64,000 bases of DNA, from contig CAWAUM010000010.1 of assembly GCA_963785235.1 (NCBI GenBank), forward strand, positions 84,365 through 148,364. Reading direction: 5' to 3'. The notes under the pieces are model-generated. The model had not been told where the DNA came from, ran no database searches, and saw nothing but the letters and a program-made list of their open reading frames with translations. Positions within the stretch are counted from its first letter, which is position 1. Each line of letters starts with the position of its first letter. Below are positions 15,169-52,960 of the stretch, in pieces. The translations under genes and the position numbers were made by a program. This stretch comes from an uncultured delta proteobacterium (GTDB taxonomy: Bacteria; Desulfobacterota; Desulfomonilia; UBA1062).

Positions 15169-15243
15169 GGGTATTCTAAAATGAAAGAGGCCGCCGGAAA
15201 ATAGGATCCGGTCAGAAAACAACAGAGAGCAAAAGGAGGTTCC

Positions 15244-16432
15244 ATGAGAAAAATGTTGTCTGGTATATTCATAATCTGTGTCGTTTTCCTGCTGGCAGGC
15301 TCTGCTGATGCAGCCAGACCCGGGTTCGACGCCAAGGAGATCCGCATCGCCCAGTGGGGTCCTCAGACCGGGCCGGCTGCGCCGTGGGGGTCGGTGGCCA
15401 GGGGAAGCGACCTGATATTCAAGATGGTCAATGATGAAGGAGGCATCCACGGCCGGAAGATCAAGTACTTCATCCGTGACGACCAGTACAACCCGGCCCA
15501 GACCAAGGGGGTAGTCAAGGAACTCGTGGAGCGCGAGGGCATCTTCGCCTTTGTGGGCGGTGTGGGTGCGGCCTGTGGCATGGCAGTAAAAGACTATCTG
15601 GCCCAGAACAAGGTCATCTGGGTAGGGCCGTCCACGGCCATCGAGCGAATATGTGTTCCCGGTGAATCCGTACCTCTTTGCCGTGTACCCTCTCTATGAC
15701 GACGAGGCAAGCATCCTCACCAAGTATGTGGTGGAAAAGATGAAGGCCACGAAGATTGCTTTCTTCTACCAGAACGACGCCTATGGCAAGACCGGGCTCG
15801 ACGGGTGCAAGACCCGCATGGATGCCCTGAAGATGAAGCTTGTGGAGGAGATCTCGGTTGAGCCGGGAGAGAAGGACCTCTCGTCCCAGATGCTCAGGCT
15901 CAAGAACTCCGGCGCCGAGGTGGTCATCTGTGGGTGAATCCCACCAGCGCCGTCATTGCGCTCAAGACCTGTCAGACCATCGGATACAAGCCCAAATGGG
16001 TATCTTCCAACACCCTGTCCGACTTCCCACTTATGCAGAAGATCAGCGGCGGCCTCTGGGAGGGTGTCATCACCGGCGGCTTCGGCATACCGCCCGACCT
16101 CCGATGACACGCGCATCGTCAAATACCGTGAGGCTGCCAAAAAGTATGCTCCCGAGGAACGCTTCGGCACCTTCTACCTGGCGGGCGTCCTGTGGGCCGA
16201 ACCGCTCATCGAGGCACTCAAGAAGACCGGGCCCAAGCTGAGCACCGAGGCCTGCCTGAAGCAGCTCAACTCCATAAAGAATTTCCAGGGCATCGGACCC
16301 AAGATCACATGGTCGCCCCAGGTGCATCAGGGGTCCGACTCGGTCTTTATCCAGCAGTGCGGACCGAACTCCAGCTATATCATCCTCCAGGACTGGATGG
16401 TCAACGACCTGGCCAAGTGGAAGAAGAAATAA
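15244..16432 (+). pseudogene. Liv-type periplasmic substrate-binding protein, upstream paralog, broken by at least 3 frameshifts
   Basis: Fragments 15244..15699, 15653..15937 and 15956..16432 (with a further frame break near 16100) together align with the intact downstream paralog along its full length, at roughly 75% amino-acid identity where alignable. Confidence 0.8.
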
Positions 16433-16523
16433 CATGGAACTTGGGGGCGGAAACCCCGCCCCTTCTTGATAACTGACAGGAAACACACACCCGGGTCTGA
16501 TATCCCGGGATTTAAAGGAGGAT

Positions 16524-17720
16524 ATGATGATCAAGAGGCACATGTTTATTACCGGAATATGCTTTCTTATCATGCTTCTCCTGCCTGTAACGGGAAGCGC
16601 AGCACGACCAGGTTTTGACGACAAGGAGATCAGGATCGGGCAGTGGGGACCTCAGACAGGTCCTGCAGCACCATGGGGATCCGTGGCCAGGGGCAGCGGC
16701 CTGCTGTTCAATGTGATCAACGAGCAGGGCGGCATACACGGCAGGAAGATCAAGTACTTCATCCGGGATGACCAGTACAACCCGGCCCAGACCAAGGGCG
16801 TGGTCAAGGAACTCGTGGAGCGTGAAGGCGTCTTCGCCTTCGTGGGAGGCGTGGGAGGTGCCTGCGGCCTGGCGGTCATGGACTATCTCAATGAAAAAAA
16901 GGTTATCTGGGTTGGTCCGTCGGCTGCCATTACCGAATTCGTCTTCCCGGTGAAGCCTTACGTGTTTGCCGTGTATCCGCTGTATGAAGACGAGGGGAGC
17001 ATCCTTGCAAAATACGTTGTTGAAAAGCTCAAGGCCAAGAAGATAGGGTTCTTCTACCAGAACGATGCCTATGGCAAGGATGGGCTTGACGGTGCCAAGA
17101 AGAGGCTCGCTACATACAAGATGAGCTTCGTGGAGGAAATCCCCGTGGAGCCCGGCGAGAAAGACCTCTCCTCCCAGATGCTGAAGTTCAAAAACTCCGG
17201 TGCGGAAGTGGTCATGATGTTTGTCAACCCAACGGTGGCCACAATTGCCCTGAAGACCTGCGCCACCGTCGACTTCAAGCCCCAGTGGGTATCCTCCAAC
17301 ACCCTGTCGGACTACGGGCTCATGCTCAAGATCACGGGCGGTCTCTGGGAGGGTGTCATCACCGGCGCCTTCGGCATGACGCCCACAGCTGACCACCCCC
17401 TCATGAACATGTATCGTGAGGCGGGAAAGAAGTATTCACCTGAAGAGCGGTGGGGTACTTTCTATCTCGCAGGCATCGTCTTTGCCGACCCCCTTGTGGA
17501 GGCACTCAAGCGCGTTGGACCGAAGCTGAGTACGGAGGCCTGTGTGAAGGCGCTGAACTCCATCAAGGACTATCAGACCATCGGTCCCAAGGTCAACTGG
17601 TCGCCGCAGATCCACCAGGGCACAGACTCCGTCCAGATCCAGAAATGCGGACCGGGCGGTTCGTACATCCTGCTCCAGGACTGGACGCCCAACGACCTGG
17701 CAACGTGGAAAAAAAAGTAG
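16524..17720 (+). CDS. livK: Liv-type ABC periplasmic substrate-binding protein (intact copy)
   Basis: 398 aa with signal peptide. Type-I periplasmic binding fold family; ribosome-binding site AAAGGAGG. Confidence 0.85.
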   Translation: MMIKRHMFITGICFLIMLLLPVTGSAARPGFDDKEIRIGQWGPQTGPAAPWGSVARGSGLLFNVINEQGGIHGRKIKYFIRDDQYNPAQTKGVVKELVEREGVFAFVGGVGGACGLAVMDYLNEKKVIWVGPSAAITEFVFPVKPYVFAVYPLYEDEGSILAKYVVEKLKAKKIGFFYQNDAYGKDGLDGAKKRLATYKMSFVEEIPVEPGEKDLSSQMLKFKNSGAEVVMMFVNPTVATIALKTCATVDFKPQWVSSNTLSDYGLMLKITGGLWEGVITGAFGMTPTADHPLMNMYREAGKKYSPEERWGTFYLAGIVFADPLVEALKRVGPKLSTEACVKALNSIKDYQTIGPKVNWSPQIHQGTDSVQIQKCGPGGSYILLQDWTPNDLATWKKK

Positions 17721-21218: not shown

Positions 21219-21510
21219 GTGAATCGGGTTAAAAACTGTAATCCCCTTCCGTTTCGTGGAAAGTTTTTTCTCATATTTTCAGCATGTTCTCTGTATTGTA
21301 ACTGATAACCTATTGATTATTCTCATAGCCGGTTATTGCATACTTATTGCTTAAAGGTTATTCACAAGACTGTATGGCATAGTTCACAAAAAACAGGGGA
21401 TGCCATAAATTCATGTCCTCGCACACGGTGTTTGTATACAATGATAAGGAGCTGATAATTAGTCTTTCAATGTACTCCCTGCAATGCATCTGGAGGAAGG
21501 GGAAACGTTC

Positions 21511-22932
21511 ATGAGAAGTAAATGGCTCTCGATAGGCATCTTTCCCTTGCTGTTTTGCCTCTTTTTATCAGGCGCATGCAGCAAGCACCATACAGGCCAC
21601 AAAGTGTCTGCCGAAGAGGCCTTTTCCGCACATATCATCGCACCAGCGGATAATGTGACCGTTACTGAAGGACAGCCGGTTAACTTTGAAGGGACTGCAG
21701 TCAACGGCACAGGGCCTTACACCTATCAATGGACCTTTGACGGAGGTGCATCGGATTCAATAGAGCAGAACCCCGGATTAGTCACCTTTACTATGCGCGG
21801 GACCTATACGATCACCTTGGTCGTCAAAGATTCAAAAAAAGCCACAGCGAGTGAAACAAGGGTTGTAAGCGTGCGTTCCCCCGGGGCAAAGAATCTGCTC
21901 CTCGTAAGCGCCAGCACGAATCATTCCCTTGCGATCAAACCTGACGGGACACTCTGGTCATGGGGATTTAATTTTCATGGCCAACTCGGTGATGGAACCT
22001 GGACAAATAGAACTTCGCCCATCAAGGTAGGAAACGACCAAGACTGGGTTGCGGTAAGCGCCGGTGATGGTTTCTCGCTTGCGCTCAAGTCGGATGGGAC
22101 ACTCTGGGCATGGGGAAGCAGTGCAGCTATCGGAACTGGATCCTTTGGTGACAGCAATATCCCAATGCAGATCGCTTCCACGACGGACTGGGTTGCCATG
22201 AGTGCGGGAGGCGGCTTTTCGCTGGCTCTCAAGACCGACGGGTCTCTCTGGGCATGGGGAAATAATTCTTCCGGTCAGCTCGGTGATGGATCACAGAAAA
22301 GTGAATGGATCCCAGCACCGATCGGGACCGACAAAAATTGGACTTCCGTGAGTGCAGGTATGGATCACAGTGCCGCGCTCAAATCCGACGGTACACTCTG
22401 GGAATGGGGAAGTAAATATAACCCTCCCGCCGGTTACTACCAATGGTTATACGATACCGTACCGGTTCAGGTAGGAACCGATCCGGATTGGCTTGGGGTG
22501 AGTACCAGCGGGGATCATACGCTTGCCATCAAGTCCGACGGATCCCTCTGGTCATGGGGCAACAATGAATTCGGCCAGCTCGGATACAGTAGCTACATCT
22601 CAAGAGATACCCCCGCCCTGGTTATCACCCCCGGCACATGGGTTGCGGTATGTGCCTCTGCTGACTACAGCCTTGCCGTTAAAAACGATGGAACCCTCTG
22701 GGCATGGGGAAATAACTATTATGGTCAGCTCGGAGATGGAACAAACGTTGACAAAAGAATACCTACCCAGGTGGGGTCCGACAATGACTGGGTGATGGCA
22801 CGATCCTTCTACCACCATACCATAGCCTATAAAACAGACGGTTCCATCTGGACCTGGGGCGCTAATTGGGCAGGCCAGCTCGGGAATGGGTCGTACGCTG
22901 ATATGAATGTCCCCGGGAAGATCAACTTCTGA
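21511..22932 (+). CDS. Lipoprotein with PKD domain and about 7 RCC1-like beta-propeller repeats
   Basis: Lipobox LFLSGC; PKD-like segment (YTYQWTFDGG); repeated xDGTLWxWGxNxxGQLGDG RCC1 signature. Confidence 0.75.
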   Translation: MRSKWLSIGIFPLLFCLFLSGACSKHHTGHKVSAEEAFSAHIIAPADNVTVTEGQPVNFEGTAVNGTGPYTYQWTFDGGASDSIEQNPGLVTFTMRGTYTITLVVKDSKKATASETRVVSVRSPGAKNLLLVSASTNHSLAIKPDGTLWSWGFNFHGQLGDGTWTNRTSPIKVGNDQDWVAVSAGDGFSLALKSDGTLWAWGSSAAIGTGSFGDSNIPMQIASTTDWVAMSAGGGFSLALKTDGSLWAWGNNSSGQLGDGSQKSEWIPAPIGTDKNWTSVSAGMDHSAALKSDGTLWEWGSKYNPPAGYYQWLYDTVPVQVGTDPDWLGVSTSGDHTLAIKSDGSLWSWGNNEFGQLGYSSYISRDTPALVITPGTWVAVCASADYSLAVKNDGTLWAWGNNYYGQLGDGTNVDKRIPTQVGSDNDWVMARSFYHHTIAYKTDGSIWTWGANWAGQLGNGSYADMNVPGKINF

Positions 22933-22936
22933 TTGC

Positions 22937-25900
22937 TTATTGCTGATCTAAAATATCCCTGATCTTCTTGGAGAATTCGGCCATGCTGAATGGTTTCTGG
23001 ATAAAGCCTTTGCATCCGTTTTTCATGATTTCCTTTGCCTGACCATCAAGACTGTAGCCGCTTGAAAGCAGCACCTTTACATCGGGGTTGACGCGGCGCA
23101 GGGTGTCGAAGGTTTCTTTCCCGCCGAAATCGGGCATGATAATGTCAAGGATCACAAGATCAATCTTACCCCGGGCCTGTTCATAAATCAGTAGACCTTG
23201 TCTTCCTCCTGATGCGCTCAACACCTTATAGCCGAGACCTTCGAGCATTTTTGAACCGATATCCAGGATCATCTCTTCATCGTCAATGAGGAGTATCGTC
23301 TCACGACCTCTCATGATCTCGCCATTTGTCTTTTGCTCGCCTGAAACATCTTTATCCGAGGCCGGGAGATAGATCATGAAGGATGTGCCGAGGTCCTTTT
23401 CGCTCTCTACATTAACGAATCCGCCGTGATTCTTGATGATACCATACACAGATGCCAAACCCAGGCCGGTTCCGCGGCCACGCTCCTTGGTGGTGAAAAA
23501 CGGCTCGAAGATCCTTATTTTTACAGACTCGTCCATTCCGATACCTGTATCCGTAACAGTCACCTTTACAAATCTGCCGGGCATGATTTCATAAGGACTC
23601 ACCTCAACCTCATCCAGATTGATATTTTCTACCGAGATGAACAGGTCACCGCCGCCCGGCATGGCCTGCCAGGCATTCACGAACAGATTGAGCATTACCT
23701 GTTCCATCTGCCCCCGGTCCACATCAACGGCCCAGAGTCCCTGGGCGATCTTGTTATGGATCCGGATCTCTTTCTTAGTCCGGCCGAACATCTCGGAACT
23801 CTTCTGAATGAATTCTCCAAGATGGGTAGGTTTAACCTCATACTTTCCCCCCCTCGCAAATCCGAGCAGCTGCTTTGTAAGGTCGGAGCCACGCTGTACA
23901 TATTCCTCAACACTCTTGAGGCGATCAAAGAATGGATGCGACTCATCAAAGTGCATGAGTATGAGGGATACATTGCCCAGGATACCCATGAGCAAATTGT
24001 TGAAGTCATGGGCAATACCGCCTGCAAGCGTTCCCACTGCCTCCATCTTCTGTGCACGGGTCAGCTGCTGCTCAAGGTTCTTCTTCTCGGTCATGTCGAT
24101 GAGAAAGCCCCTCAATCCGGCAGGCTTGTCGTCATGGTAGACACAGGTGGTATGCACCAGTGCAGGGAAGGTTGTCCCGTCCTTTCTCCGGGCCACATAT
24201 TCATTCAGACCAATCTTCTCCCCTCGCATGACCCTCTTATAGTTCTCCATCATCCGTTCATGGTCTTCCGGGGCCACCACATCCAGGACACTTATGCCCT
24301 GGTTCATCTCTTCGGTGGTGAACCCGAACCGTTCGAAGGAACTCTGGTTCACAAAGGTTAAGAAACCTTTTTCATTCGTTTCAAACACCGTCTCGGGCAT
24401 GAGGCTGGCCAGATCACGGAATCGCTCCTCGCTCTCGCGCAAAGCCTTTTCGGCATTCTTCCGGTCAGTGATGTCCATGAGTGAGGCGACACTTACCTTG
24501 CTGCCTGGTATGAGGGCTATGCTCAGAAAGATGTCCCTTGACTCACCTGAACGGTTTAAGAATCTGAATTCATAGGATCTGGGGACGGATTCGATCCCCT
24601 CCCGGCGCTCTTCATGGTAACGCTTCATCCTCTCCAGGTCTTCAGGAGAAACGAACGTAGTCCAGCTCATCTTGCCCTCGACCTCTTGGCGCAAGTAGCC
24701 CGAGAGCTTTTCGAAATTGGAGTTTACCAGCAGGACCGTCCTGTCCTCCCCGAGCAGCATTGAGGCATTCCCAGTGTTCTCAAAGATGGTGCGGTACTGC
24801 TCCTCGCTATCCCTGATTGCCTCCTCGATCTGTTTCCTCTCGGTGATGTCGGTCTGCGTCCCGATGATGCGGGCAGGGTTGCCGTCTTCAGACCATTGGA
24901 AGACCTTGCCCCGGTCAAGGACCCACTTGTAACTCCCGTCCTTGCATTTCACCCGGTGCTCACTGGTATAGACCGGCAGCTCTCCGCGCAGATGACGCTC
25001 CAGAATATTGTCCGACTGCTGCCTGTCCTCGGGATGGATCAACCTCGACCAGGCCTTAGGACTGTCGTCGATTTCGTTGTCCGTGTAACCGAGCATCTCC
25101 TTCCAGCGTCTGGAACGGTACACCTTTTTATTTATCAGATCATAGTCCCATACACCATCGCCTGCACCCTCCAGGGCGAATTGCCACCTCGCTTCGCTCT
25201 CCCGGAGTGCCTTCTCGGACCGGTTGCGCTCCGTAATGTCAATCATGGATGATACACTCTCTTTTGTGCCCGGGATCAAGGCGACACTCATGAAAAGATC
25301 CCTTATCTCTCCTTTGCGGTCCTTAAAACGGAACTCATAGGAGTTCGCTGCCGAGCCCGGATCATTGCGGCGCATCACGTGGTATCTCTTCATCCTCTCC
25401 AGGTCTTCGGCCACAACGAAACCGGTCCAGCTCATCTTACCTTCCAGTTCTTCTCCCGAGTATCCCGACATCTTCTCAAAATTTGAGTTGGCAAGGAGGA
25501 TCGTGGTATCTTCGGCTATGATGATGTTCGCCGTTGCAGTGCTCTCGAAGGTTGTCCGGTAGAGCTCTTCGCTTTTCCGTATGACCTCATCGGCCTTCCT
25601 GCGCTCTGTGATGTCCCGGGTGATACCCAGAATACCCGTGGGATTACCGGCTTCATCATACAGGATATTAATCTTCACCTCTGTCCATACCGTGGATCCA
25701 TCTTTGCGGATCATCTCGAGTTCGATGTTTTTCGTCCACGCTTTGCCGTGCATCTGCCCGCCGAGTTCCAGCAAACGTTCCCGAGCAAAGAGATCGGCTA
25801 TTCTCTGGTAGGATTCGGGCGTGAGGGATTGATCTATGGAATGCTTCATGACTTCTTCAGGGGTATATCCCCTGAGCTCCATAACAGAAGGGCTCACATA

Positions 25901-28720
25901 GACATAGTGCAAGTCGGTGTCGAGAACCCAGATAACATCCCGCAGGTTCTCGGCGAGCAGCCGGTAACGGCTCTCGCTCTCCTTGAGGGCCTGCTCGGCC
26001 TGGATCCTTTCCGTGATGTCTCTCCCTACGCCCCTGAACCCGGCAGGCTCACCCGATGTGTCTCGAATCAGCGATACTGACATCTCGATGACCCTTTTTG
26101 ATCCATCCTTCCTGATGAGCTCATGATCGACCAGGGTTTTTGGTTTGCCTATTCTATAAACATCGTTGAAGACCTGGAATAACTTCGTTGAGGTCTCTGA
26201 AGTGGAAATGGACCTGTAGTTCATACCGCAGAGTTCTTCACGGGTATAGCCGAGAACTTTGCTTAAGGAATCATTGAAAAAGGTGAAGTTGCCACTGAGG
26301 TCTGATTCGAGGTATGCCTCTTCCATGCTCTCGAGGATAGATCGGTACTTCTCCTCACTTACACGCAGCGCATCCTCAGCCTGTTTACGGCTGGTGATAT
26401 CCCTTACAACGCCACTGAACCCGATCGGTGCTCCATTGGCATCCCGCCTCAAGGATACAGAAGCGTCGACGTAAATCTTGTGGCCATTCTTTTCATTTAA
26501 TTCCCATTCGACGCTGCTGATAGGCTCCCCATCGAGAAAGACCTTATGGAATGCATTGAAAACCTTCTTGGTATTCTTATCATCGATATACTGGCGATAG
26601 TTAACCCCCATGAGCTCATCATGTGCATAGCCAAGCCGTTGTGCAGGCCTGGGATTGAAAAAAGTGAAGTTGCCCTTGAGGTCCACCTCATAGTATGCCT
26701 CTTCCATGTTGTCGAGGATGCTTCGATAACGCTCCTCGCTTTCCCGAAGGGCCTTCTCGGACCGTTTGCGCACGGTAACATCACGCACCAGCGTATTGAA
26801 CCCTATGGGCTGCCCCGATGCATCTCTCATGAGCCAGACAGACAACTCATTGTCATGAAGAGAGCCGTCCTTGTGGTTGACCTGGTAGTCCACCAGCAAC
26901 TCGGGTTTCCCTGTCTTGAAAACCCTGTTAAAGGACTCGAACATGAGCTTGGCTGTTTCAGGCGGGGCGTATGTGCGATAATTCATCCCGAGCAGTTCTT
27001 CCGGGCTGTATCCGGACATCCTGACGGCTGCATTGTTGAAGAAGGTGAAGTTACCGGCAAAATCCACCTCGAAATATGATTCCTCCATGCTTTCCAGGAT
27101 TCTTCTGTACTTGTCCTCGCTGATACGCAAGGCCTCCTCGGCCTGTTTGCGCTCGGTGATATCGATATGATTGGAAATACTTTCATTGGTCCCGGGTATG
27201 AGGGTAACCAGGGCAAGGATATCCCTGACCTCTCCTGTCCGGGTGATAAACCTGAACTCGTAAGATTCCGGCGCAGAGCCCGGCTTTTCCCGTCGCATTC
27301 TGTGATAGTTTTTCAGCCGTTCAAGGTCATCCTCGGAAATAAAGGATTCCCAGGTCATCTTGCCCTCGATCTCGTGGCGGGAGTAGCCCGAAAGCCCTTC
27401 GAAATTGGAGTTCGCAAGCAGGATTGTCTTGTCCTCTCCTATGATGATGGCGGCGTTGCCCGTATTCTCGAATATGGCCCGGTAGCGCCCCTCACTCTTT
27501 TTCAGGGCATCTTCAACCATTTTCCGCTCGGTCACATCCCTTTCCACGCCGCGAAAACCCTTTGGCTGCCCTGAAGGGTCCAGCAAGAGAGCGGCAGTCA
27601 TCTCATGAACCCGGACAGACCCATCCTTTTGAATTACTTCATAATCAACCGTATATTCAGGGTTTCTGGTTTTATAAATCCGGCTGTATACTTCAAGCAT
27701 CTGTTTTGCCGTCTCAGGGGTCATGTACTTGCGGTAATTCAATCCATGGATTTCATCCTGAGAATATCCCAGTCCTCTGCAGCTGGCCTCGTTATTGAAC
27801 GTGAAGTTGCCCTTGAGATCGAGTTCGAAATACCCTTCTTCGATATTTTCAAGGATTCCCCTGTACCTTTCTTCACTCAGGCGCAAAGCCTCTTCCGCCT
27901 GTCTACGATCATTGATATCCATGCATGACGCCACACTCTCGTTGGTGCCGGGTATCATGGCTATGGTCAGGAAGATGTAACGGAGTTCTCCGTAGCGATT
28001 CTTAAAACGGAACTCATAAGAACCAGGTGCCGATTCAGGGTTTTCCCTGCGCTGTGCATGGTAGCGCCTCATCTTCTCAATGTCTTCATCTGCGATGAAG
28101 ACAGTCCAGCTCATCTTTCCTTCCAGCTCTTCCTTGGAATATCCCGAGAGCCTTTCAAAATTCGAGTTCGCAAGGAGGATCGTTGTATCTTCTCCGATAC
28201 AGATGGATGCGTTACCCGTATTCTCGAAGATGGTGCGATAGCGCTCTGAGCTTTTTTTCAACTGTTCCTGGGCTTTCTTCCATGCAGTTATGTCACGGGC
28301 GATTCCCTGGATGGCATAGGGCTCTCCTGAACGATAAATGACAGAGGCCCTTGACTCCAGCCAGACAAAACTCCCGTCTTTGTGTCTGACCATATATTCT
28401 TCGGATTCCCTCTGTGTCCCTGTCTCCTTCAATTCCTGTATGGTTCTGAACACCTTGGGGATCTGCTCGTCTGCAAGAAGCGTAGTCAATGTGATATTTT
28501 TCAGCTCTTCTCTGGAGTATCCGAGCAGATTGAACCCGGCATTACTGGCATCAAGAAACCTGCCTTCAAAGTCGAGGATATAGACCACGTCAAAAGATCG
28601 CTCAAACAGGGCCTTGTAGCGCTCTTCACTCTCCCTGGCAGCCTCTATTGCCAGGCTGTGTTCCTGCTCAAGGTCCTTGAGCCTCTTTTCCAAGTCCTCA
28701 TAGCTGGGTTTCTCAAACAT
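22937..28720 (-). CDS. Cytoplasmic hybrid sensor histidine kinase with about 14 PAS/PAC domains, HisKA, HATPase_c and a C-terminal REC domain
   Basis: 1927 aa with no predicted TM. HisKA H-box AHDFNNLL, then a G-box/ATPase, then a receiver (LLIDDEEM...[10 protein letters not shown]). Ribosome-binding site GGGAGGAG. Confidence 0.9.
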
Positions 28721-28898
28721 CAGCTTCTCCTCCCGGAGGATAGAGCGGCATCTTTTCCTGTGCCTTGTTACGCAAGATATACGGGTATCTCATGCAGATA
28801 CTTTATCGGCATTCTACCCTGGGGAAACTTAGCGTCACATGATGATTTTGCGATATTATTATTCCGGATGTTGCATGTAAGCGGTGTAAAAACCTGAT

Positions 28899-43803: not shown

Positions 43804-43994
43804 TTTTATTCCTTCTATGCAGGAATCTATTCAGACCATATTTCCATAAGAATATCAAGTCATTTGAACCAGGAAAGCCCCTTGGAACCTCGTACAGAAA
43901 GACCCCCTCTTGATTTCAGACCAAAAGGAATCAGAGAGGTTTTCACATACGCCGACACCGGGGGCGCATTCATCTCCATAACCCTATCTTCCGT

Positions 43995-45389
43995 TCACCT
44001 TCCTGCTAGCGCCCGGTATCGATAGTACTCCATCATCCTCGCATACGCCCGCAGTGCCCTCTCCGGCGTCGGGTATACAGGGATTCCGTGTTCGTGCAGG
44101 GGCTTCAGCAGCTCGGCCTGGTCGATCTGGACGAACCCGGGATAGGCAATGGCCATGATATGTTTCTCCGTTTGCCCCTTTGCCCGGATGAGCCCTTGTA
44201 TATAGTCTGCGCTCATGTCGGTTGATGCCCCGCCTCCGAGCATGACCACGGCATCCACCCCCGGGTCAGCCAGGATAATTTCAAGTGCCTCCTGATAGAG
44301 CCTGAGGTCGAACGATGCGCTCAGCCCCACGTCGATGGGGTTTGCCCATGATGTCCCGGTGGGCGGGAGCAGAGCTTTGAGCCTGTGGATGCTCTCGTTG
44401 CAAAGGTCCGCCATAACAAGGCCGTTCCTCTCCACAGCATCGGCTGCGGACACCGCAGGACCGCCCGGTCCGGAGACGATGGCCACCCTGCCCTCTCCGC
44501 CTGGGCCCATATGATAGAAGGCCATGGCAAGGTCGCACATCTCCTCGATGTCGCACACATCCAGGATGTGAAACTGCCTGAAAAGGCTCCTCCACAACTC
44601 GCCCTGTCCGGTCAGCGCCCCGGTATGGGATGCGGCAGCCTTCGAACCGGCTTTTGTGAGCCCCACCTTCCACATGATCACGGGCTTTTCAGGTGTCGTT
44701 CGCCTTCAAGGCATCAAGCAGCCTGCCCATCTCGCGCACGCCCTCGCAGTAGGTGCAGATGACAGCGGTCTGCTCATCTTTGCCCATCCATGCCAGCAGG
44801 TCTGCCAGTTCGATGTCCGCACCGTTGCCGCTGCTTGCAACGTGGCTGAAGAAGAGCCCTTTGGCCGAACAGTAATTCACGAACAGGTTCACCAGTGAAC
44901 CGCTCTGGCTGATAAACCCCAGCTTCCCCACAGTCCTGGGCATGCCCGGAAAAGGGGCGATCCGCGAACCGGGAGAGTATATGCCCATGCAGTTGGGCCC
45001 CAGGATGCAAAACCCCCCCTCGTGCGCAATGCGCCTCATGCGCGCCTCGTCGTCGCGACCCGCAGTCGTCTCCCAGCTCGGAAAACCCCGAGGTGTAGAG
45101 GATCACGGCCTTGACCTGTTTTCTTGCGCATTGTGCCAGCACATCAAAGACCGTCTCTTTCGGCGACATGATGATGACCAGGTCCACCGCACCTGGCACC
45201 TCATGGAGGTTGGGGTATGCCTTGTAGCCGTCGATCTCGGTTGCACTCGGGTGGATAAGGTATATGGGCCCGACTGAAGCCCTGGTCGAGAAGCCCCAGG
45301 AAGAAGACCTTGCCCGCTTTGAGTCCCCGGGGGATGCCGTAGAGCGCTATGGATTCCGGAGAAAAAAGGCTTTGAATCGTGTCATGCAT
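43995..45389 (-). pseudogene. NDP-forming acyl-CoA synthetase (acetyl-CoA synthetase (ADP-forming) alpha-like), at least 3 frame breaks
   Basis: N-terminal CoA-binding fragment 45201..45389 (MHDTIQSLFSPESIALYG), then 44774..45199, 44689..45039 and the C-terminal ligase-CoA fragment 43995..44681. All collinear. Confidence 0.7.
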
Positions 45390-45542
45390 AACAACCCCCC
45401 GTTCACAGGAACTGGAACAATCCTGTCTGCACATATATGCTCTAAAGGAACATGCATGCACATAGTATCACCAGATCAGATGTGCATCAATGCATGGACA
45501 TGAAATGGTCAGGTTCTCTTCTCCGACAAAAAGGTGGCAGGT

Positions 45543-46850
45543 TTATTTTTCAGTCTTGGTCACCGGGAGTTTGAGCCTTCCCTTCAGAGAGAGCTGCCTT
45601 GCGCCATGCCGGTAGCTGATGTACTGGAAGGCCCAACGGATGAGGATAATAAGCCTGTTCTCAAAATTGATGAGCAGGAGAAGGTGGATAAATAACCAGA
45701 GAAGCCATGCGAAATATCCTCCAAAATGCCATCTGCCGATAGCTGCAACGGCAGAGTTGCGCCCTATGACTGCAAGGGTGCCCTTGTCAAAATATCGAAA
45801 CGGCCTGTGCCCGATCTTCCCAGCAAGACGGCCGATGATGATCCCGGCCACATATCGTCCTTGCTGGGTCGCCACCGGGGCAAGGCCCGGCAGCGGCGTG
45901 CCGCTTTTACCTGTGCAATGCGCCAGGTCTCCTATGACAAAGATCTCCGGATGAGCGGGCACGCTCAGGTCAGGGGCCACCATGACACGACCCGAAGGAT
46001 CTAGCGTAGCCCCTGTCTTTTCCGCCAGGTTCCGGCCAAGGGGGGAGGCCTTCACCCCTGTTGCCCACAACAAGGTCCTGGCAGGTAGACGCCGGGTGCT
46101 GCCCTTTCTGTTCAAGGTGATCCCTTTTTCATCCATATCCACAACCCTGGCGCCGGTCATGGGTTTTACACCTATACTGATGAGGGATTCTTCAGCCTTT
46201 CTGGAGAGATCTGCCGGATAGCCCGGCAGTATCCGATCAGCGGAATCGAGGATGATTATCTGCGACTCTTCCGGATGGATGGAGCGGAATTCATCCTTGA
46301 GGGTATTCTGTGCAATCTCGGCAATCATCCCTGAAAGCTCAATGCCGGTGGCTCCACCTCCTATGACAACAAAGGTGAGCCACTCTTTGCGTAGATCAGG
46401 GTCTGTTTCACGCTCTGCGACCTCGAAGGCATAGAAGATCCTGTTACGGATCTCGGCAGTGTCTTCAATAGTCTTCAGCCCAGGGGCAAACTGGGCCCAT
46501 TCATCATTTCCGAAATAGTGGTTTTCCATGCCGGCGGCTACAATCAGGGTGTCATACTCCATGGCACCATCTGCCAGGATGACCCGTTTGCCTTCTGGAT
46601 CAAAGTCCACAACCTCACCCAGGAGGACCTGGGTATTCTTCTGCTTCCTGAGAATATGCCGTAATGGAGCCGTGATCTCCGACGGACAGAGCAGCCCTGT
46701 TGCAACCTGGTAGAGAAGGGGTTGGAAAAGATGGTAATTCTGCTTGTCGATGATGGTTATTCTCCCAGGCAAATTACCCAGGGTACGCACTGCCGACAGG
46801 CCGCCGAACCCGCCGCCGATGATAACAACATGTTGTCCTGTGCATTCCAT
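45543..46850 (-). CDS. ndh: Type II NADH:quinone oxidoreductase-like FAD/NAD(P)-binding oxidoreductase with C-terminal membrane anchor
   Basis: VVIIGGGFGGL... and a second dinucleotide-binding motif; C-terminal hydrophobic helix; ribosome-binding site GGGGGAGG. Confidence 0.8.
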   Translation of the reverse strand: MECTGQHVVIIGGGFGGLSAVRTLGNLPGRITIIDKQNYHLFQPLLYQVATGLLCPSEITAPLRHILRKQKNTQVLLGEVVDFDPEGKRVILADGAMEYDTLIVAAGMENHYFGNDEWAQFAPGLKTIEDTAEIRNRIFYAFEVAERETDPDLRKEWLTFVVIGGGATGIELSGMIAEIAQNTLKDEFRSIHPEESQIIILDSADRILPGYPADLSRKAEESLISIGVKPMTGARVVDMDEKGITLNRKGSTRRLPARTLLWATGVKASPLGRNLAEKTGATLDPSGRVMVAPDLSVPAHPEIFVIGDLAHCTGKSGTPLPGLAPVATQQGRYVAGIIIGRLAGKIGHRPFRYFDKGTLAVIGRNSAVAAIGRWHFGGYFAWLLWLFIHLLLLINFENRLIILIRWAFQYISYRHGARQLSLKGRLKLPVTKTEK

Positions 46851-46989
46851 TGTCTTCTTCCTCCCCCTTTAGGCGAATGAAAATTGTGAAAATTGGGGAC
46901 GGGTTCATATTTCAAGAGTTTGGGGATAAGTTTGTGGTGTGCCCGTCCCCAATTTCCTCCAAGGGGTTTACCCCTGGAACCTCTCTTCA

Positions 46990-48014: not shown

Positions 48015-48464
48015 ATGTTCTATTTTCAACTGCTGGATCTAATAAAAGACAATGCGAATGAGTTGACGAGGCGCTTGTGCAAAGACATACTCAGCATGGA
48101 GGAGACCAAAGGATACCGCAAGTTCTCCTATGAGGTCATGTATGAACGTGTCTTCGATGTGTACAACAAGCTCAGTTCCTGGTTAGGCACGGATGATCAC
48201 ACCACCGGCGAGATCAGGAAGGTATATACCGAGCTTGGAAGAAAGCGGTACCGTGAGGGCCTTCCTCTTAATGAAGTGGTCCTGGCATTCATGCTTATTA
48301 AAAGGCATCTCTGGGTCTTCATGCAGGAGAAGCAGTTCTTTGAAACCACTTATGAGTTCAGCCAGGCCCTTGAACTCAATAACAAGGTCGTCCTTTTCTT
48401 TGACAGGGTGATTTACTTTGTAACCATGGGCTATGAAGAGGAGCTTCTCAAGAATAAGGGGTAG
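48015..48464 (+). CDS. Hypothetical protein
   Basis: Ribosome-binding site GAAGGAGG precedes the ATG; 149 aa. Confidence 0.5.
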   Translation: MFYFQLLDLIKDNANELTRRLCKDILSMEETKGYRKFSYEVMYERVFDVYNKLSSWLGTDDHTTGEIRKVYTELGRKRYREGLPLNEVVLAFMLIKRHLWVFMQEKQFFETTYEFSQALELNNKVVLFFDRVIYFVTMGYEEELLKNKG

Positions 48465-48532
48465 CAACAGGCGAAGGGAAACCGGGATCGGAGCCGATTA
48501 TAATAAATCGACCCCGACCCTTTTTTTATACA

Positions 48533-49285
48533 TTGACACAAGACCCGAAACCCATATCTTTGATACCATGGATAACTGCTCAACTGTGGACCCACATGCT
48601 CTCTGAGCTCCTCACTTATTTCACGACGCCCTGTCCGCGGTATGTCCGCCGTATGGGTTATCTCTATGAGGCCATCGCCATGCGCGAAAGGCATCGGCGC
48701 CGCCGTGCCGACTGGCAGCAGCACATTGCCAGCACCAGGCGATGCGTCCTTTCCGTGGCTCGCAGTTGCCGGAACAGGGAAAGGGCCGTTGTCCTCGGGG
48801 CGGGCCTTTTACTGGATGTACCGCTCAATGAGCTTGCATCGATGTTCCGCGAGGTCGTCCTTGCAGACATCGTGTTCTTACCGGAAATACGCAGGCTTAT
48901 AAACAGCTATGGCAATGTCAAACTCCAGCAATGCGATGTGACGGGTATTGCGGAACTGCTTTTTCAAAACGTACAATGCGGCCGACAGGCCCTCCCTTCA
49001 GATACCGCGCCCGTACTTCCTGCGGTCGAAGCCGGCACGGGGTTGGTCGTTTCGCTGAACCTCCTCTCCCAGCTCTGTGTGATACCAGGCAGATTTGCTC
49101 TCAAACATATGCCCTTGCTCCATGAAAAATACCTCTCCGACTGGTGCGGACGGATTATGGCATTGCATTATGCAGCCATGGCATCGCTGCCGGGTGATGT
49201 ATGCCTCATTGCTGATCATGCATTTGCCAAATATGACAGGCAAGGGCACATCGCAGAAAGAGGTACCCGAAACCCATATCTTTGA
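48533..49285 (+). pseudogene. Upstream, C-terminally truncated copy of a tandemly duplicated gene of unknown function (Rossmann-like VVLGAG motif)
   Basis: Identical to the downstream copy for ~240 codons, then runs out of frame into the repeat junction (…ERGTRNPYL*). Confidence 0.6.
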
Positions 49286-50118
49286 TACCATGGATAACTG
49301 CTCAACTGTGGACCCACATGCTCTCTGAGCTCCTCACTTATTTCACGACGCCCTGTCCGCGGTATGTCCGCCGTATGGGTTATCTCTATGAGGCCATCGC
49401 CATGCGCGAAAGGCATCGGCGCCGCCGTGCGGACTGGCAGCAGCACATTGCCAGCACCAGGCGATGCGTCCTTTCCGTGGCTCGCAGTTGCCGGAACAGG
49501 GAAAGGGCCGTTGTCCTCGGGGCGGGCCTTTTACTGGATGTACCGCTCAATGAGCTTGCATCGATGTTCCGCGAGGTCGTCCTTGCAGACATCGTGTTCT
49601 TACCGGAAATACGCAGGCTTATAAACAGCTATGGCAATGTCAAACTCCAGCAATGCGATGTGACGGGTATTGCGGAACTGCTTTTTCAAAACGTACAATG
49701 CGGCCGACAGGCCCTCCCTTCAGATACCGCGCCCGTACTTCCTGCGGTCGAAGCCGGCACGGGGTTGGTCGTTTCGCTGAACCTCCTCTCCCAGCTCTGT
49801 GTGATACCAGGCAGATTTGCTCTCAAACATATGCCCTTGCTCCATGAAAAATACCTCTCCGACTGGTGCGGACGGATTACGGCATTGCATTATGCAGCCA
49901 TGGCATCGCTGCCGGGTGATGTATGCCTCATTGCTGATCATGCATTTGCCAAATATGACAGGCAAGGGCACATCGCAGAAAGAGGATCGACACTATACGG
50001 CCTGGACCTGCCGGAACCGGACGACTCCTGGACATGGATGGTTGCCCCTTTCGGAGAGGAATCGCAATACCTCTCCAAGGAACTTCATGTGGGTGCATGG
50101 TATATGCAAAGGGGATGA
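49282..50118 (+). CDS. Full-length copy of the duplicated gene of unknown function
   Basis: 278-aa ORF. Start is uncertain: TTG at 49282, first in-frame ATG at 49315. Confidence 0.55.
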   Translation: MIPWITAQLWTHMLSELLTYFTTPCPRYVRRMGYLYEAIAMRERHRRRRADWQQHIASTRRCVLSVARSCRNRERAVVLGAGLLLDVPLNELASMFREVVLADIVFLPEIRRLINSYGNVKLQQCDVTGIAELLFQNVQCGRQALPSDTAPVLPAVEAGTGLVVSLNLLSQLCVIPGRFALKHMPLLHEKYLSDWCGRITALHYAAMASLPGDVCLIADHAFAKYDRQGHIAERGSTLYGLDLPEPDDSWTWMVAPFGEESQYLSKELHVGAWYMQRG

Positions 50119-50215
50119 GGGGGTGCTTGCACAGTTCAAGACAAAGGGCTACAATCTTGTGCAGGCTTAAACGCAATGTCTTTTCATGGAGAAGATCCTA
50201 CTTAAGGGGGGCGTC

Positions 50216-51442
50216 ATGAAGATAAAAACCATAGAAATGTTTCATGTTTCCATCCCGCTGAAAGAAACCTTCTGGCCCACATGGATACCGGGCTATCCGC
50301 AGACGCACAACCGCTTTACCCTGATCAAGTTAACCACGGACGACGGCATCACCGGTTATTCTGCCGGTACGGCCATGGGCCATGAGCGCGAAGGCCTGGG
50401 CGACCTCATCGGCAGCTACCTCATGGGCGCAGACCCCACGGATATTGACCGTGTCCAGGGGCTGCTCAAACAGGCAGGCTTCCTTGGCTGGAGAAACTTC
50501 TGGATCGAGCCCGCATGCTGGGACATCATGGGAAAGAGTCAGGGTAAGCCCGTCTATGAGCTGTTGGGCGGGAGGGCGCGAGCCATAGATGTCTACCTTT
50601 CCACCGGAGAGATGCACGACCCTCACAGAAGGGTTGATGAACTCCTGGCCATGAAGGACCGTGGATTCAAGACCGCCAAGCTCAGGGTGAAGAATGTGAG
50701 CCTCCATGAGGACATCAGGCACATCGAGCTCGTGAGCAAAGGCCTCTCGGGCGCCATGAAGCTCGGGGTGGATGCGAACCAGGGCTGGCTCGTCACCATC
50801 GTGGACAAAATCCCTGCATGGGACCTTGCACGCGCCAAAAATTTCGCCGATGCATGCGCAGACTGCGGCATCGAATGGCTCGAAGAGCCCCTTGATTCCC
50901 GCGACTACGACGGCAATGCCGCGCTCAAAAAGATGTCGAAGGTGAAGATCTCGGGTGCCGAGATCAACTACGGGTGGGACGAGATCAAGATCATGTTGGA
51001 GAAGGACTGCTTTCACGTGTACCAGCCTGACGCCACCTTTGCCGGAGGAATTGCGCAGGTGAAGAAGGTCCTCGACGCGTGCAAGCTGAAAGATCGTCTC
51101 TTCAGCCCCCATACCTGGACCAACGGCATCGGTTTTTACATAAACTGGAACATGGTGCTTGCGGACAGAGAGAATGCGCTACCCCTGGAATACCCGCTCG
51201 AAGAGCCTTCATGGATCCCGGAGTTCCGGGAGGGGATCATCGAGCCCATCATCCCGGACAAGGAGGGCCGGCTGCAGCCCTTTACCAGGCCGGGACTCGG
51301 CTTTGAGATCAATGAGAGGCTCCTGAAGAAATACGGCCGGCGCTTTTTCAAGCTTACCGAAACCGGCCTCAAGTTCAAGGTGATCCGGGAAAAGGGCCTG
51401 AAGGCAGCGCTGAACCTCAAAAAGCGCAAGGAAGAGGGCTAA
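50216..51442 (+). CDS. Enolase-superfamily enzyme (mandelate racemase/muconate lactonising enzyme family)
   Basis: K-x-K, metal ligands (D...E...D) and a His/Lys dyad context; ribosome-binding site AAGGGGGG. Confidence 0.75.
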   Translation: MKIKTIEMFHVSIPLKETFWPTWIPGYPQTHNRFTLIKLTTDDGITGYSAGTAMGHEREGLGDLIGSYLMGADPTDIDRVQGLLKQAGFLGWRNFWIEPACWDIMGKSQGKPVYELLGGRARAIDVYLSTGEMHDPHRRVDELLAMKDRGFKTAKLRVKNVSLHEDIRHIELVSKGLSGAMKLGVDANQGWLVTIVDKIPAWDLARAKNFADACADCGIEWLEEPLDSRDYDGNAALKKMSKVKISGAEINYGWDEIKIMLEKDCFHVYQPDATFAGGIAQVKKVLDACKLKDRLFSPHTWTNGIGFYINWNMVLADRENALPLEYPLEEPSWIPEFREGIIEPIIPDKEGRLQPFTRPGLGFEINERLLKKYGRRFFKLTETGLKFKVIREKGLKAALNLKKRKEEG

Positions 51443-51781
51443 AAATGGGATCAAGATGTTAGGGCAGATTGCGACCTGATCCAACTTTTGCCCATCGATA
51501 CATAAAGAATGCAACAAAATCTGAACCGAAATCTCCCTTGAGAAATGCCCCTGCGCATTGACTTTCCTCAATATCCGATTATTTTATGCTGTGTATTTAA
51601 TGTTTCTCTTGGATTCCCGTGTAATTCAATTTCACACGTTATCGTTTGATATTTTTTGGGCTGGCGAGAAGGGCCTCCCTTCGCTTTTCACCAAGGTCAC
51701 ACCTGTGTGACGGCCTCAGAGAAAGGTGGTCCGGTCCCGGCATGCAATCCACAGTGGTACGCCGGGGAAAGGGGATTTACC

Positions 51782-52960
51782 ATGGGCGAACAGATAATGA
51801 TGATCCACGGGATGTGGGGAGGACCATGGGTATGGAACAACTACAAACAATTCTTCGAGTCAAAAGGGTATCGCTGCCTCACGCCCGCACTGCGGTTCCA
51901 TGATAAGGAATCAACGGATTTCTCGTATGACCAATTGGGTGAAACGAGCCTGCTGGATTATGCCAAAGACCTTGAGCATGAGATATGTCAGCTCCATGAG
52001 AAACCAATACTCATGGGGCACTCCATGGGCGGCCTTCTCGCCCAGATACTCGGGAGCCGCGGCCTGGCAAAGGCCCTTGTGCTCCTGACGCCTGCATCAC
52101 CGAGAGGGATCATGGCCCTGAAGCTATCCGTGATCAGGAGCTTCTGGAGCACCCTCACAAAACCGGGCTTCTGGAAAAAGCCCATGCTGCAGACCTTTGA
52201 TGAGGCGGTCTACTCCATGCTGCAGATGATGCCTGGTGAAGATCGTAAAGCACTGTACGATAAATTCGTTCCGGAATCAGGCCGGGCAGGCTTTGAGATC
52301 GGGTTCTGGCTGCTGGATGGAAATCGCGCCACTGAGGTCAATGAGTCCAGAGTCACCTGCCCCTGTCTGATAATCTCAGGGAAACTCGACAAGATTACCC
52401 CACCTTCGGTTGTCCGGAGCATGGCACACAAATACCGGACAGTATCCACGCTCAAGGAATTTACACACCATGCCCACTGGGTTCATGACGAACCAGGCTG
52501 GATCGAGATCGCCGAGTACTGCGCTGAATGGCTGGATCAGGTCCTCGTTACCATGTCCGAAAGACCCCTGCCAATCGCAATACCTCACGCAAGACCGGCG
52601 GACAGGGTAAAAAAGGCCGTATCGGGCTACACTCAGAAATGGAAACACACGAAGGGAGTGGAACACCGCACAGGCAGGAGGACAGAGATGAACCTGGTGG
52701 TCGATGCGAGCATCCCCTGCAGCGGTAATGCCCAGTACTATGAGCTCGGATATACCATGAATATCTGCCAAGGCGGGATATACCTGGATACTGTCGCACC
52801 CCTGGAAGAAGGCATGTATGTGAATGCGAACCTGCATACCGGGAAGGCAGAGAAACCCCTGTGGGTACAGGGCCGTGTGGTGAGAGCTGCAGGCAATGGC
52901 ATGGCTATGGCATTTTCCCATGTGGAGCCCGAGAGATTGAACCGGCTACTGCTCATATAG
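51782..52960 (+). CDS. Alpha/beta-hydrolase fused to a C-terminal PilZ-like domain
   Basis: GHSMGG nucleophile elbow in the N-terminal ~260 aa. The C-terminal ~110 aa carry RxxxR (RTGRR) and a D/NxSxxG-like motif (NICQGG). Confidence 0.6.
   Translation: MGEQIMMIHGMWGGPWVWNNYKQFFESKGYRCLTPALRFHDKESTDFSYDQLGETSLLDYAKDLEHEICQLHEKPILMGHSMGGLLAQILGSRGLAKALVLLTPASPRGIMALKLSVIRSFWSTLTKPGFWKKPMLQTFDEAVYSMLQMMPGEDRKALYDKFVPESGRAGFEIGFWLLDGNRATEVNESRVTCPCLIISGKLDKITPPSVVRSMAHKYRTVSTLKEFTHHAHWVHDEPGWIEIAEYCAEWLDQVLVTMSERPLPIAIPHARPADRVKKAVSGYTQKWKHTKGVEHRTGRRTEMNLVVDASIPCSGNAQYYELGYTMNICQGGIYLDTVAPLEEGMYVNANLHTGKAEKPLWVQGRVVRAAGNGMAMAFSHVEPERLNRLLLI

Follow-up and report, generated by a model that had tools for sequence, protein, structure and literature searches.

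A 721-nt Tandem Repeat at a Methyltransferase-Like Gene: Probably a False Duplication of Metagenome Assembly

Introduction

Long-read metagenome assemblers are known to output false direct-repeat duplications that the reads do not support, to concatenate the variants of subpopulations, and to include structures that a single read backs (Trigodet et al., bioRxiv 10.1101/2025.04.22.649783). The false repeats reported there average 88–96% identity, and the published cases were demonstrated by read clipping and coverage. Chimeric reads are likewise a recognised cause of misassembly (myloasm preprint, bioRxiv 10.1101/2025.09.05.674543).

RecA-independent tandem duplications in bacteria produce a head-to-tail order, a novel junction, and one truncated plus one intact copy. 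Such duplications usually use short homologies, and typical tandem-duplication junctions, as Reams and Roth reportedly described in 2015, use short or long homologies. [quoted passage not shown]

Here, we describe a near-perfect tandem repeat in a 64-kb stretch of DNA from an uncultured delta proteobacterium (hereafter the window, to whose positions all coordinates refer). Like the misassemblies of the two preprints, it is a long direct repeat on a contig that apparently derives from a mixed natural population, its copies carry different population alleles, independent assemblies of the locus are single copy, and indel-type consensus errors occur elsewhere in the window. It differs from those cases in that its copies are 99.7% identical and the repeat is known from contig sequences instead of read clipping and coverage. 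With RecA-independent duplications it shares the head-to-tail order, the novel junction, and the pairing of a truncated with an intact copy, and instability and polymorphism within the population would likewise be expected of it. In contrast to them, its junction is blunt with a 1-nt filler, two sites already distinguish its copies, and a contig of the same strain lacks the duplication.

Results and Discussion

Repeat Geometry and Junction

A self-comparison of the window at an offset of 722 nt showed that positions 48543–49263 (copy 1) and 49265–49985 (copy 2), each 721 nt long and both on the forward strand, as are the genes and elements of the locus given below, are the same but for two sites, 48709 C versus 49431 G (site 1) and 49158 T versus 49880 C (site 2). 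Neither copy has an indel against the other (99.7% identity), and there was no match at this offset beyond their limits. The T at 49264, which separates the copies, is absent from single-copy sequence at both breakpoints and differs from the G at 48542 (before copy 1) and the A at 49986 (after copy 2). It can be described as a 1-nt junction filler or, just as well, as a third substitution at the border of a 722-nt unit, and it gives the 721-nt repeat its period of 722 nt. The original prediction had described a 722-bp near-perfect head-to-tail duplication with only two substitutions. The repeat and both substitutions are confirmed; the block is 721 nt plus the filler base, and the register proposed at first (48542..49263 and 49264..49985) adds the 48542 G/49264 T pair as a further mismatch. 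Judged by its length and identity, such a repeat cannot be a product of chance, and no other near-perfect repeat occurs in the 64-kb window. Tandem Repeats Finder listed no repeat in the window, because its longest period is 500 nt and the period here is 722 nt.

The junction reads GAGG-T-ACCC, is blunt and head-to-tail, and is crossed in the two-copy contig by the sequence GCAGAAAGAGGTACCCGAAACCC. Inspection of the repeat ends revealed no microhomology at the breakpoints. Imperfect similarities near the ends, ATTGACAC/ATCGACAC and ACATTGACACAAGA/ACATCGCAGAAAGA, have periods of 732 and 718 nt, not 722 nt, and slippage between either pair was ruled out as the source of the junction for this reason. 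The junction also creates a KpnI site (GGTACC), which we treated as a chance occurrence; the window holds 13 GGTACC, and palindromic hexamers of some kind cover 8.7% of its positions.

The junction bears on the two readings that carry most weight, a false duplication created during metagenome assembly and a real, recent tandem duplication in the strain or a subpopulation. Ligation of two dA-tailed fragments would leave a single T filler without microhomology. The blunt junction with its T fits such a ligation better than it fits typical bacterial duplication junctions, and this favours the artefact. The filler base and the lack of microhomology count against a real duplication, which would have to be formed by illegitimate, homology-independent joining beside the hairpin described below. 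On the other hand, the clean junction and the indel-free copies are as a real event would show.

Coding Consequences of the Repeat

Outside the repeat and upstream of it, a 149-aa gene from the ORF list (48015–48464) encodes a protein with a weak RsbRD_N-like match (PF14361, E = 0.0075, under the cut-off). Exactly this protein is also encoded by the three other assemblies of the locus discussed below (L001, L002, and L084). A hairpin (48484–48520) followed by a run of seven T residues (together 48484–48528; MFE −17.7 kcal/mol, z −2.06) looks like the intrinsic terminator of this gene, although a simple terminator scan did not list it. Next comes a sigma-70-like promoter (48533–48560), composed of TTGACA (48533–48538), a 16-nt spacer, and TATCTT (48555–48560). 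It was the top hit of the region, with 10 of 12 positions matching, a match to the consensus only, and it probably acts as a promoter.

On its left side, the repeat begins at 48543, within the spacer of this promoter and 53 nt upstream of the ATG at 48596, and consequently copy 2 keeps the −10 element without the −35 element. The right edge corresponds to codon 223 of the 266-codon gene. The repeat had been placed wholly inside a gene; instead, it starts in the promoter spacer and ends within the coding sequence.

The upstream ORF (48596–49285) is truncated to 229 aa and corresponds to the database protein P0123. Its 223 native residues are followed by TRNPYL and a stop at 49283–49285, and translation thereby bore out the predicted loss of frame after residue 223 (...ERG-TRNPYL*). 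The final two predicted beta strands are missing from the product, as are the invariant residues W238, W240, P244, L256, and W261, and the truncated copy is very likely inactive. Given the loss of the invariant C-terminal residues, selection would have no obvious cause to keep it.

The intact gene (49318–50118, 266 aa; P0001 at 100% identity) begins 32 nt past the stop of the truncated ORF. The 278-aa downstream copy proposed initially is a valid, full-length mechanical ORF that begins at TTG 49282, and ATG 49318 lies 12 codons later. All of the 40 aligned homologues start at the ATG (48596, or 49318 in copy 2) and not at the TTG; the gene is therefore taken as 266 aa. P0001 and P0123 share one NCBI/ENA database contig, which is presumably the source of the window.

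The two substitutions affect codon 38 (GCC in copy 1, GCG in copy 2; both Ala, synonymous) and codon 188 (ATG in copy 1, ACG in copy 2; Met/Thr), and the original prediction had these coding effects right. The one non-synonymous difference, M188T, might be read as a sign of an older, fixed duplication with diverging copies, in which Met188 and Thr188 would mark a divergence in function or the truncated product would serve some separate role. Residue 188, however, is variable across the family, with both M and T present among the homologues, and the truncated copy is without two core strands and the invariant residues. Moreover, the same strain occurs as a single copy, the tandem pair is found in no other genome (80 loci), and 99.7% identity is too high for an old event. 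We regard a fixed duplication of this kind as highly unlikely.

We give the least credence to a programmed repeat system, either the template/variable pair of a diversity-generating retroelement or a mobile element flanked by terminal direct repeats. Two near-identical copies do exist, as such a system would have them, and nothing further points that way. The differences are C/G and T/C, not an adenine-specific set, and the copies are strictly adjacent and span a promoter fragment plus a 5′ portion of a gene. The immediate flanks contain no ORF of transposase or reverse-transcriptase size, no tRNA, Rfam family, or mobile-element gene was found nearby, and a Pfam scan of seven neighbouring ORFs gave ordinary metabolic, signalling, or weak sub-threshold matches only. 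Both types of element were rejected on the substitution pattern and the absence of tRNA and Rfam matches.

A Methyltransferase-Like Protein Family

The original prediction could name no family for the protein and proposed a Pfam HMM search. This search gave no match to the 266-aa protein, an NCBIfam scan likewise gave none, and a profile search of the PDB returned nothing below E = 1.6. A word-indexed search found about 200 homologues with 50–83% identity. When 1.84 billion cluster representatives were searched with a profile, 1,695 matched, 1,193 of them at E ≤ 1e-10, which sets the family size at ≈1,200 representatives when counted as 50%-identity clusters at that threshold. The members are nearly all 255–280 aa long (about 263 aa) with a single matched stretch, and 149 of the 150 best representatives are shorter than 310 aa. 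They occur in Nitrospirota, Planctomycetota (Brocadiaceae, Schlesneria), Desulfobacterota, Verrucomicrobiota, and Alphaproteobacteria, the last including Methylorubrum and Caenispirillum. The best match in GTDB representative genomes is 60% identical, and the species of the window was thus not recovered among them.

An AlphaFold2 model built from 40 sequences (mean pLDDT 90.7, pTM 0.89) shows a helical region at the N-terminus and, after it, a core in which beta and alpha elements alternate, and it supports the Rossmann-like character noted from the sequence at the outset. In a Foldseek search of the PDB, the best 50 of 142 matches at E ≤ 0.001 were all SAM-dependent methyltransferases. The top ones among the matches listed were NNMT, PNMT, and NTMT1 (E ≈ 1e-5, probability 0.99–1.0), with TM-scores of only 0.3–0.4 and 10–15% identity. 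The residues G68, G70, and D91 are invariant in 40 homologues, and the model places strands at 63–67 and 86–91. Invariant residues follow or end successive strands: G68/G70 come after strand 1, D91 closes strand 2, and strands 3 and 4 are followed by D114 and N155, respectively. We take the G68-x-G70 loop, D91, D114, and N155 to be the SAM-binding motif positions of class I methyltransferases. The 266-aa protein is accordingly described here as a predicted remote class I SAM-dependent methyltransferase-like protein that belongs to no curated family. In the model, it shares with class I SAM methyltransferases a Rossmann-like alpha/beta core with a helical region on its N-terminal side; it differs from them in matching neither a curated methyltransferase family nor a PDB sequence, and its SAM binding is putative.

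The Rossmann core (residues 55–154) of 19 of the 40 homologues gave weak matches to PF03686 (UPF0146; best E = 1.3e-4). Four homologues scored individually reached 17–22 bits, under the gathering threshold of 26 bits, and the window protein itself did not match PF03686 at all. The PF03686 model comprises 129 positions, whereas the family described here is twice that length. Some homologues are labelled UPF0146 by JGI.

Downstream of the gene lie an enolase-superfamily gene (50186–51442; MR_MLE N and C domains in Pfam and NCBIfam) and an alpha/beta hydrolase-PilZ fusion (51656–52960; Pfam domains), and the domain matches agree with the identities first assigned to both. Neither is a conserved partner. 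These two genes and the 149-aa RsbRD_N-like gene stood beside homologues at 0 of 80 loci, and a conserved operon with any of them was rejected on this count. Since the enolase and PilZ neighbours are unconserved in 80 other genomes, they say nothing about the function of the gene. No broadly conserved neighbour of the family gene was found in the 80 loci. At 11 loci, mostly alphaproteobacterial, the gene lies among housekeeping genes, which are its sole recurring neighbours. As read from the ORFs, these are putatively mutL, a pseudouridine synthase gene, and rsmD-like and tadA-like genes, and their grouping is lineage-specific synteny.

Single-Copy Assemblies of the Locus

The protein cluster has two further members, whose contigs (L001 and L002) were retrieved for comparison, and L084 was identified later. 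Among these assemblies of the locus, the two-copy state was seen only in the contig of the window itself. L001 is a Logan short-read contig of 1,859 nt (run ERR10755943) in which the repeat segment is present once. It is identical to the window at all 1138 flanking bases (856 left, 282 right) and crosses both breakpoints, reading CACAAG|ACCCG on the left and GAGG|ATCGAC on the right without the T filler. A duplication present at appreciable frequency should branch a de Bruijn graph at both breakpoints. L001 establishes that single-copy genomes of the strain exist, which does not by itself imply that the source sample is free of the duplication. L002 (ENA ERZ25039527 contig_29811, 24 kb) is ≈98% identical to the window and is also single copy, with no T filler at the breakpoints. 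It carries gene-breaking indels, as in a noisy long-read assembly, and an insertion of ≈18 nt within 15 nt of the left edge of the repeat. L084 (GCA_041741295.1) is 95–97% identical and lacks 521 nt equivalent to 48530–49050, a deletion that removes the promoter and about the first 150 codons and whose junction bears an 11-nt local duplication of the T-run.

More widely, a tandem copy was found at 0 of 80 homologous loci. The junction 40-mer had no match in JGI metagenome contigs; this null result carries no information, since a 29-mer taken within the repeat was equally absent, and the species of the window seems to be missing from that collection. A literature search on the run, assembly, and genome accessions returned no match.

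The alleles at the two sites differ among these sequences. Copy 1 of the window carries C at site 1 (48709) and T at site 2 (49158), and copy 2 carries G (49431) and C (49880). L001 has G and T, L002 has G and C, and L084, in which site 1 is deleted, has C at site 2. The C at site 1 was found in no sequence compared other than copy 1 of the window, and both alleles at site 2 occur in single-copy assemblies. From this pattern across the window copies, L001, L002, and L084, G/C is the ancestral haplotype, and both derived alleles sit in the truncated copy.

The site-2 difference need not postdate the duplication, because both of its alleles segregate in single-copy assemblies. For the same reason, the near-identity of the copies does not simply mean that the event is very recent, as had been supposed. 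If the copies represent two population alleles, they would fall into a haplotype series G/C → G/T → C/T with no repeated mutation. If they diverged after a real duplication, a reversion, a parallel change, or the import of an allele must have occurred. This argument carries two caveats: L001 could be a bubble-popped mosaic, and a real duplication polished with mixed-strain reads could give the same pattern. A comparison of the differences between the copies (2/721) with those in the flanks (0/1138) gave p ≈ 0.15 in a hand calculation and has no power.

False Versus Real Duplication

We consider it somewhat probable that the repeat is a false duplication created during metagenome assembly and that the organism has one copy of the gene. 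This explanation is favoured because the same-strain L001 and the related L002 are both single copy, and we rank it above its main rival, a real but recent and unstable duplication. The original prediction had named the right alternatives, very recent duplication or assembly artefact, and the single-copy state of L001 and L002 leans the evidence towards the latter.

Two conserved genes of the window are broken by frameshifts. The Peripla_BP_6 gene (15205–16104) yields fragments that match profile positions 1–108 and then, in another frame, 106–196, with three single-base indels relative to its paralogue. The Succ_CoA_lig/Ligase_CoA gene (43995–45461) is split into at least four frames, with Succ_CoA_lig fragments at profile positions 2–77 and then 85–138. 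These defects suggest a long-read consensus, and we infer that the source is a long-read assembly.

The contig would then derive from a mixed population of very close sub-strains, to which the differing alleles of the copies also point. A chimeric long read may have joined a molecule that ends at 49263 to another from the same locus that begins at 48543, or the assembler itself may have introduced a false duplication. Either presumed route would write the same 721-nt segment twice, head to tail, and polishing with reads of the sub-strains would fix different alleles in each copy. The true locus would consist of the terminator hairpin, the promoter (TTGACA-16 nt-TATCTT), a short leader, and the 266-codon methyltransferase-like gene.

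A real, recent tandem duplication is a substantial possibility all the same, although we hold it to be the less probable of the two. In that event, the single promoter would give a transcript with the truncated ORF followed by the intact gene, which would be translated from its own duplicated leader, and the arrangement would be unstable, because homologous recombination would restore one copy. Bacterial populations commonly harbour spontaneous duplications, which are polymorphic (PMC10954465). In addition to the clean junction, the repeat leaves an intact, translatable downstream copy with its leader, as selection would allow. The position of both derived alleles in the dispensable truncated copy fits neutral pseudogene decay, and it has a chance of about 1 in 4 otherwise. 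Set against these points are the single-copy state of L001 and L002 and the fact that one of the two differences is an allele already segregating in single-copy genomes. A useless tandem copy would be expected to be lost rapidly, which leaves little time for substitutions, and two in 721 nt are hard to gather in the short life of an unselected repeat.

The surroundings of the left edge speak for a real event as well. Four close relatives show four forms of the locus: intact, duplicated, 5′-deleted by 521 nt, and with an insertion of ≈18 nt. Each of the three structural differences has an end within ≈15 nt, at 48528–48543, beside the terminator hairpin and promoter. Such clustering suggests a fragile site next to the hairpin and could mark a recombination hotspot. 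We regard it as improbable, though not negligibly so, that the duplication is real and part of a structural-variation hotspot. Were this the case, the hairpin and T-run would provoke recurrent illegitimate recombination, which would switch, or gradually destroy, expression of the methyltransferase-like gene.

Conclusion

The repeat is an ordinary thing either way, most likely a false duplication and otherwise a transient tandem duplication with the gene left intact, and it is chiefly a matter of quality control. If it is false, the public record contains a spurious protein of 229 aa (P0123) and misrepresents the local gene structure, and similar errors may sit elsewhere in the same assembly. 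If it is real, it would be an ordinary unstable tandem duplication with an intact gene and no apparent effect on function. Also worth a note is the way structural variants cluster next to the terminator hairpin. A more lasting, if modest, interest lies in the protein family itself, which is widespread, has a confidently modelled methyltransferase-like fold and strongly conserved residues, and is without a curated model.

Repeats and Disrupted Genes Elsewhere in the Window

Two large ORFs carry internal repeats. The 489-codon ORF at window 21463–22929 contains six repeats of ~76 nt each (window 21892–22711; 64–78% identity). They are spaced ~150 nt apart, an arrangement that suggests a protein made of ~50-residue repeats. 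The 1950-codon ORF on the minus strand (window 22940–28789) contains four copies of a 203-nt unit (window 24600–28246; ~70% identity), which presumably represent repeated domains of a giant protein.

We also identified two loci with interrupted reading frames. Two tandem paralogous periplasmic-binding-protein genes (Peripla_BP_6) lie on the plus strand at window 15205–17717, with ~80% nucleotide identity between them. The first is frameshifted, with profile positions 1–108 in one fragment and 106–196 in the next, in another frame; relative to the intact second copy, it carries three single-base indels. On the minus strand, the coding sequence of an ADP-forming acyl-CoA synthetase-like gene (window 43995–45461) is distributed over four or more ORFs that lie in different frames, with Succ_CoA_lig positions 2–77 in one fragment and 85–138 in the next. 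Either the gene has recently become a pseudogene, or the breaks are indel errors in the consensus. The block around it (window 43885–46889) is missing from L002, a ~98% identical contig (ENA ERZ25039527 contig_29811), which has an MMPL transporter gene in its place.

Structural Differences Around the Methyltransferase-Like Gene

The junction of the tandem duplication creates a KpnI site, GGTACC (GG + T + ACC), at window 49259–49264. The window contains 13 GGTACC sites, and palindromic hexamers of any kind cover 8.7% of its positions, so its occurrence at the junction was judged to be due to chance.

L002 carries an insertion of ~18 nt (L002:5660–5700; window 48525–48543), located directly 3′ of the T-run of the terminator hairpin and upstream of the −35 element. 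The duplication in the window and a deletion in L084, a contig of a relative at 95–97% identity (GCA_041741295.1, JBGSKG010000495.1), each have one end within ~15 nt of this insertion point. This stretch (window 48525–48543), next to the terminator hairpin, may be prone to breakage (a fragile site), or it may just be tolerant intergenic DNA.

The deletion in L084 (within the region L084:940–1320) affects the 5′ part of the methyltransferase-like gene, removing the equivalent of window 48530–49050, and its junction is marked by an 11-nt duplication (CTTTTTTTATT, present twice). The 3′ third of the gene is still an open frame. Because the promoter and approximately the first 150 codons have been lost, the methyltransferase-like gene appears to be dispensable in the L084 lineage.
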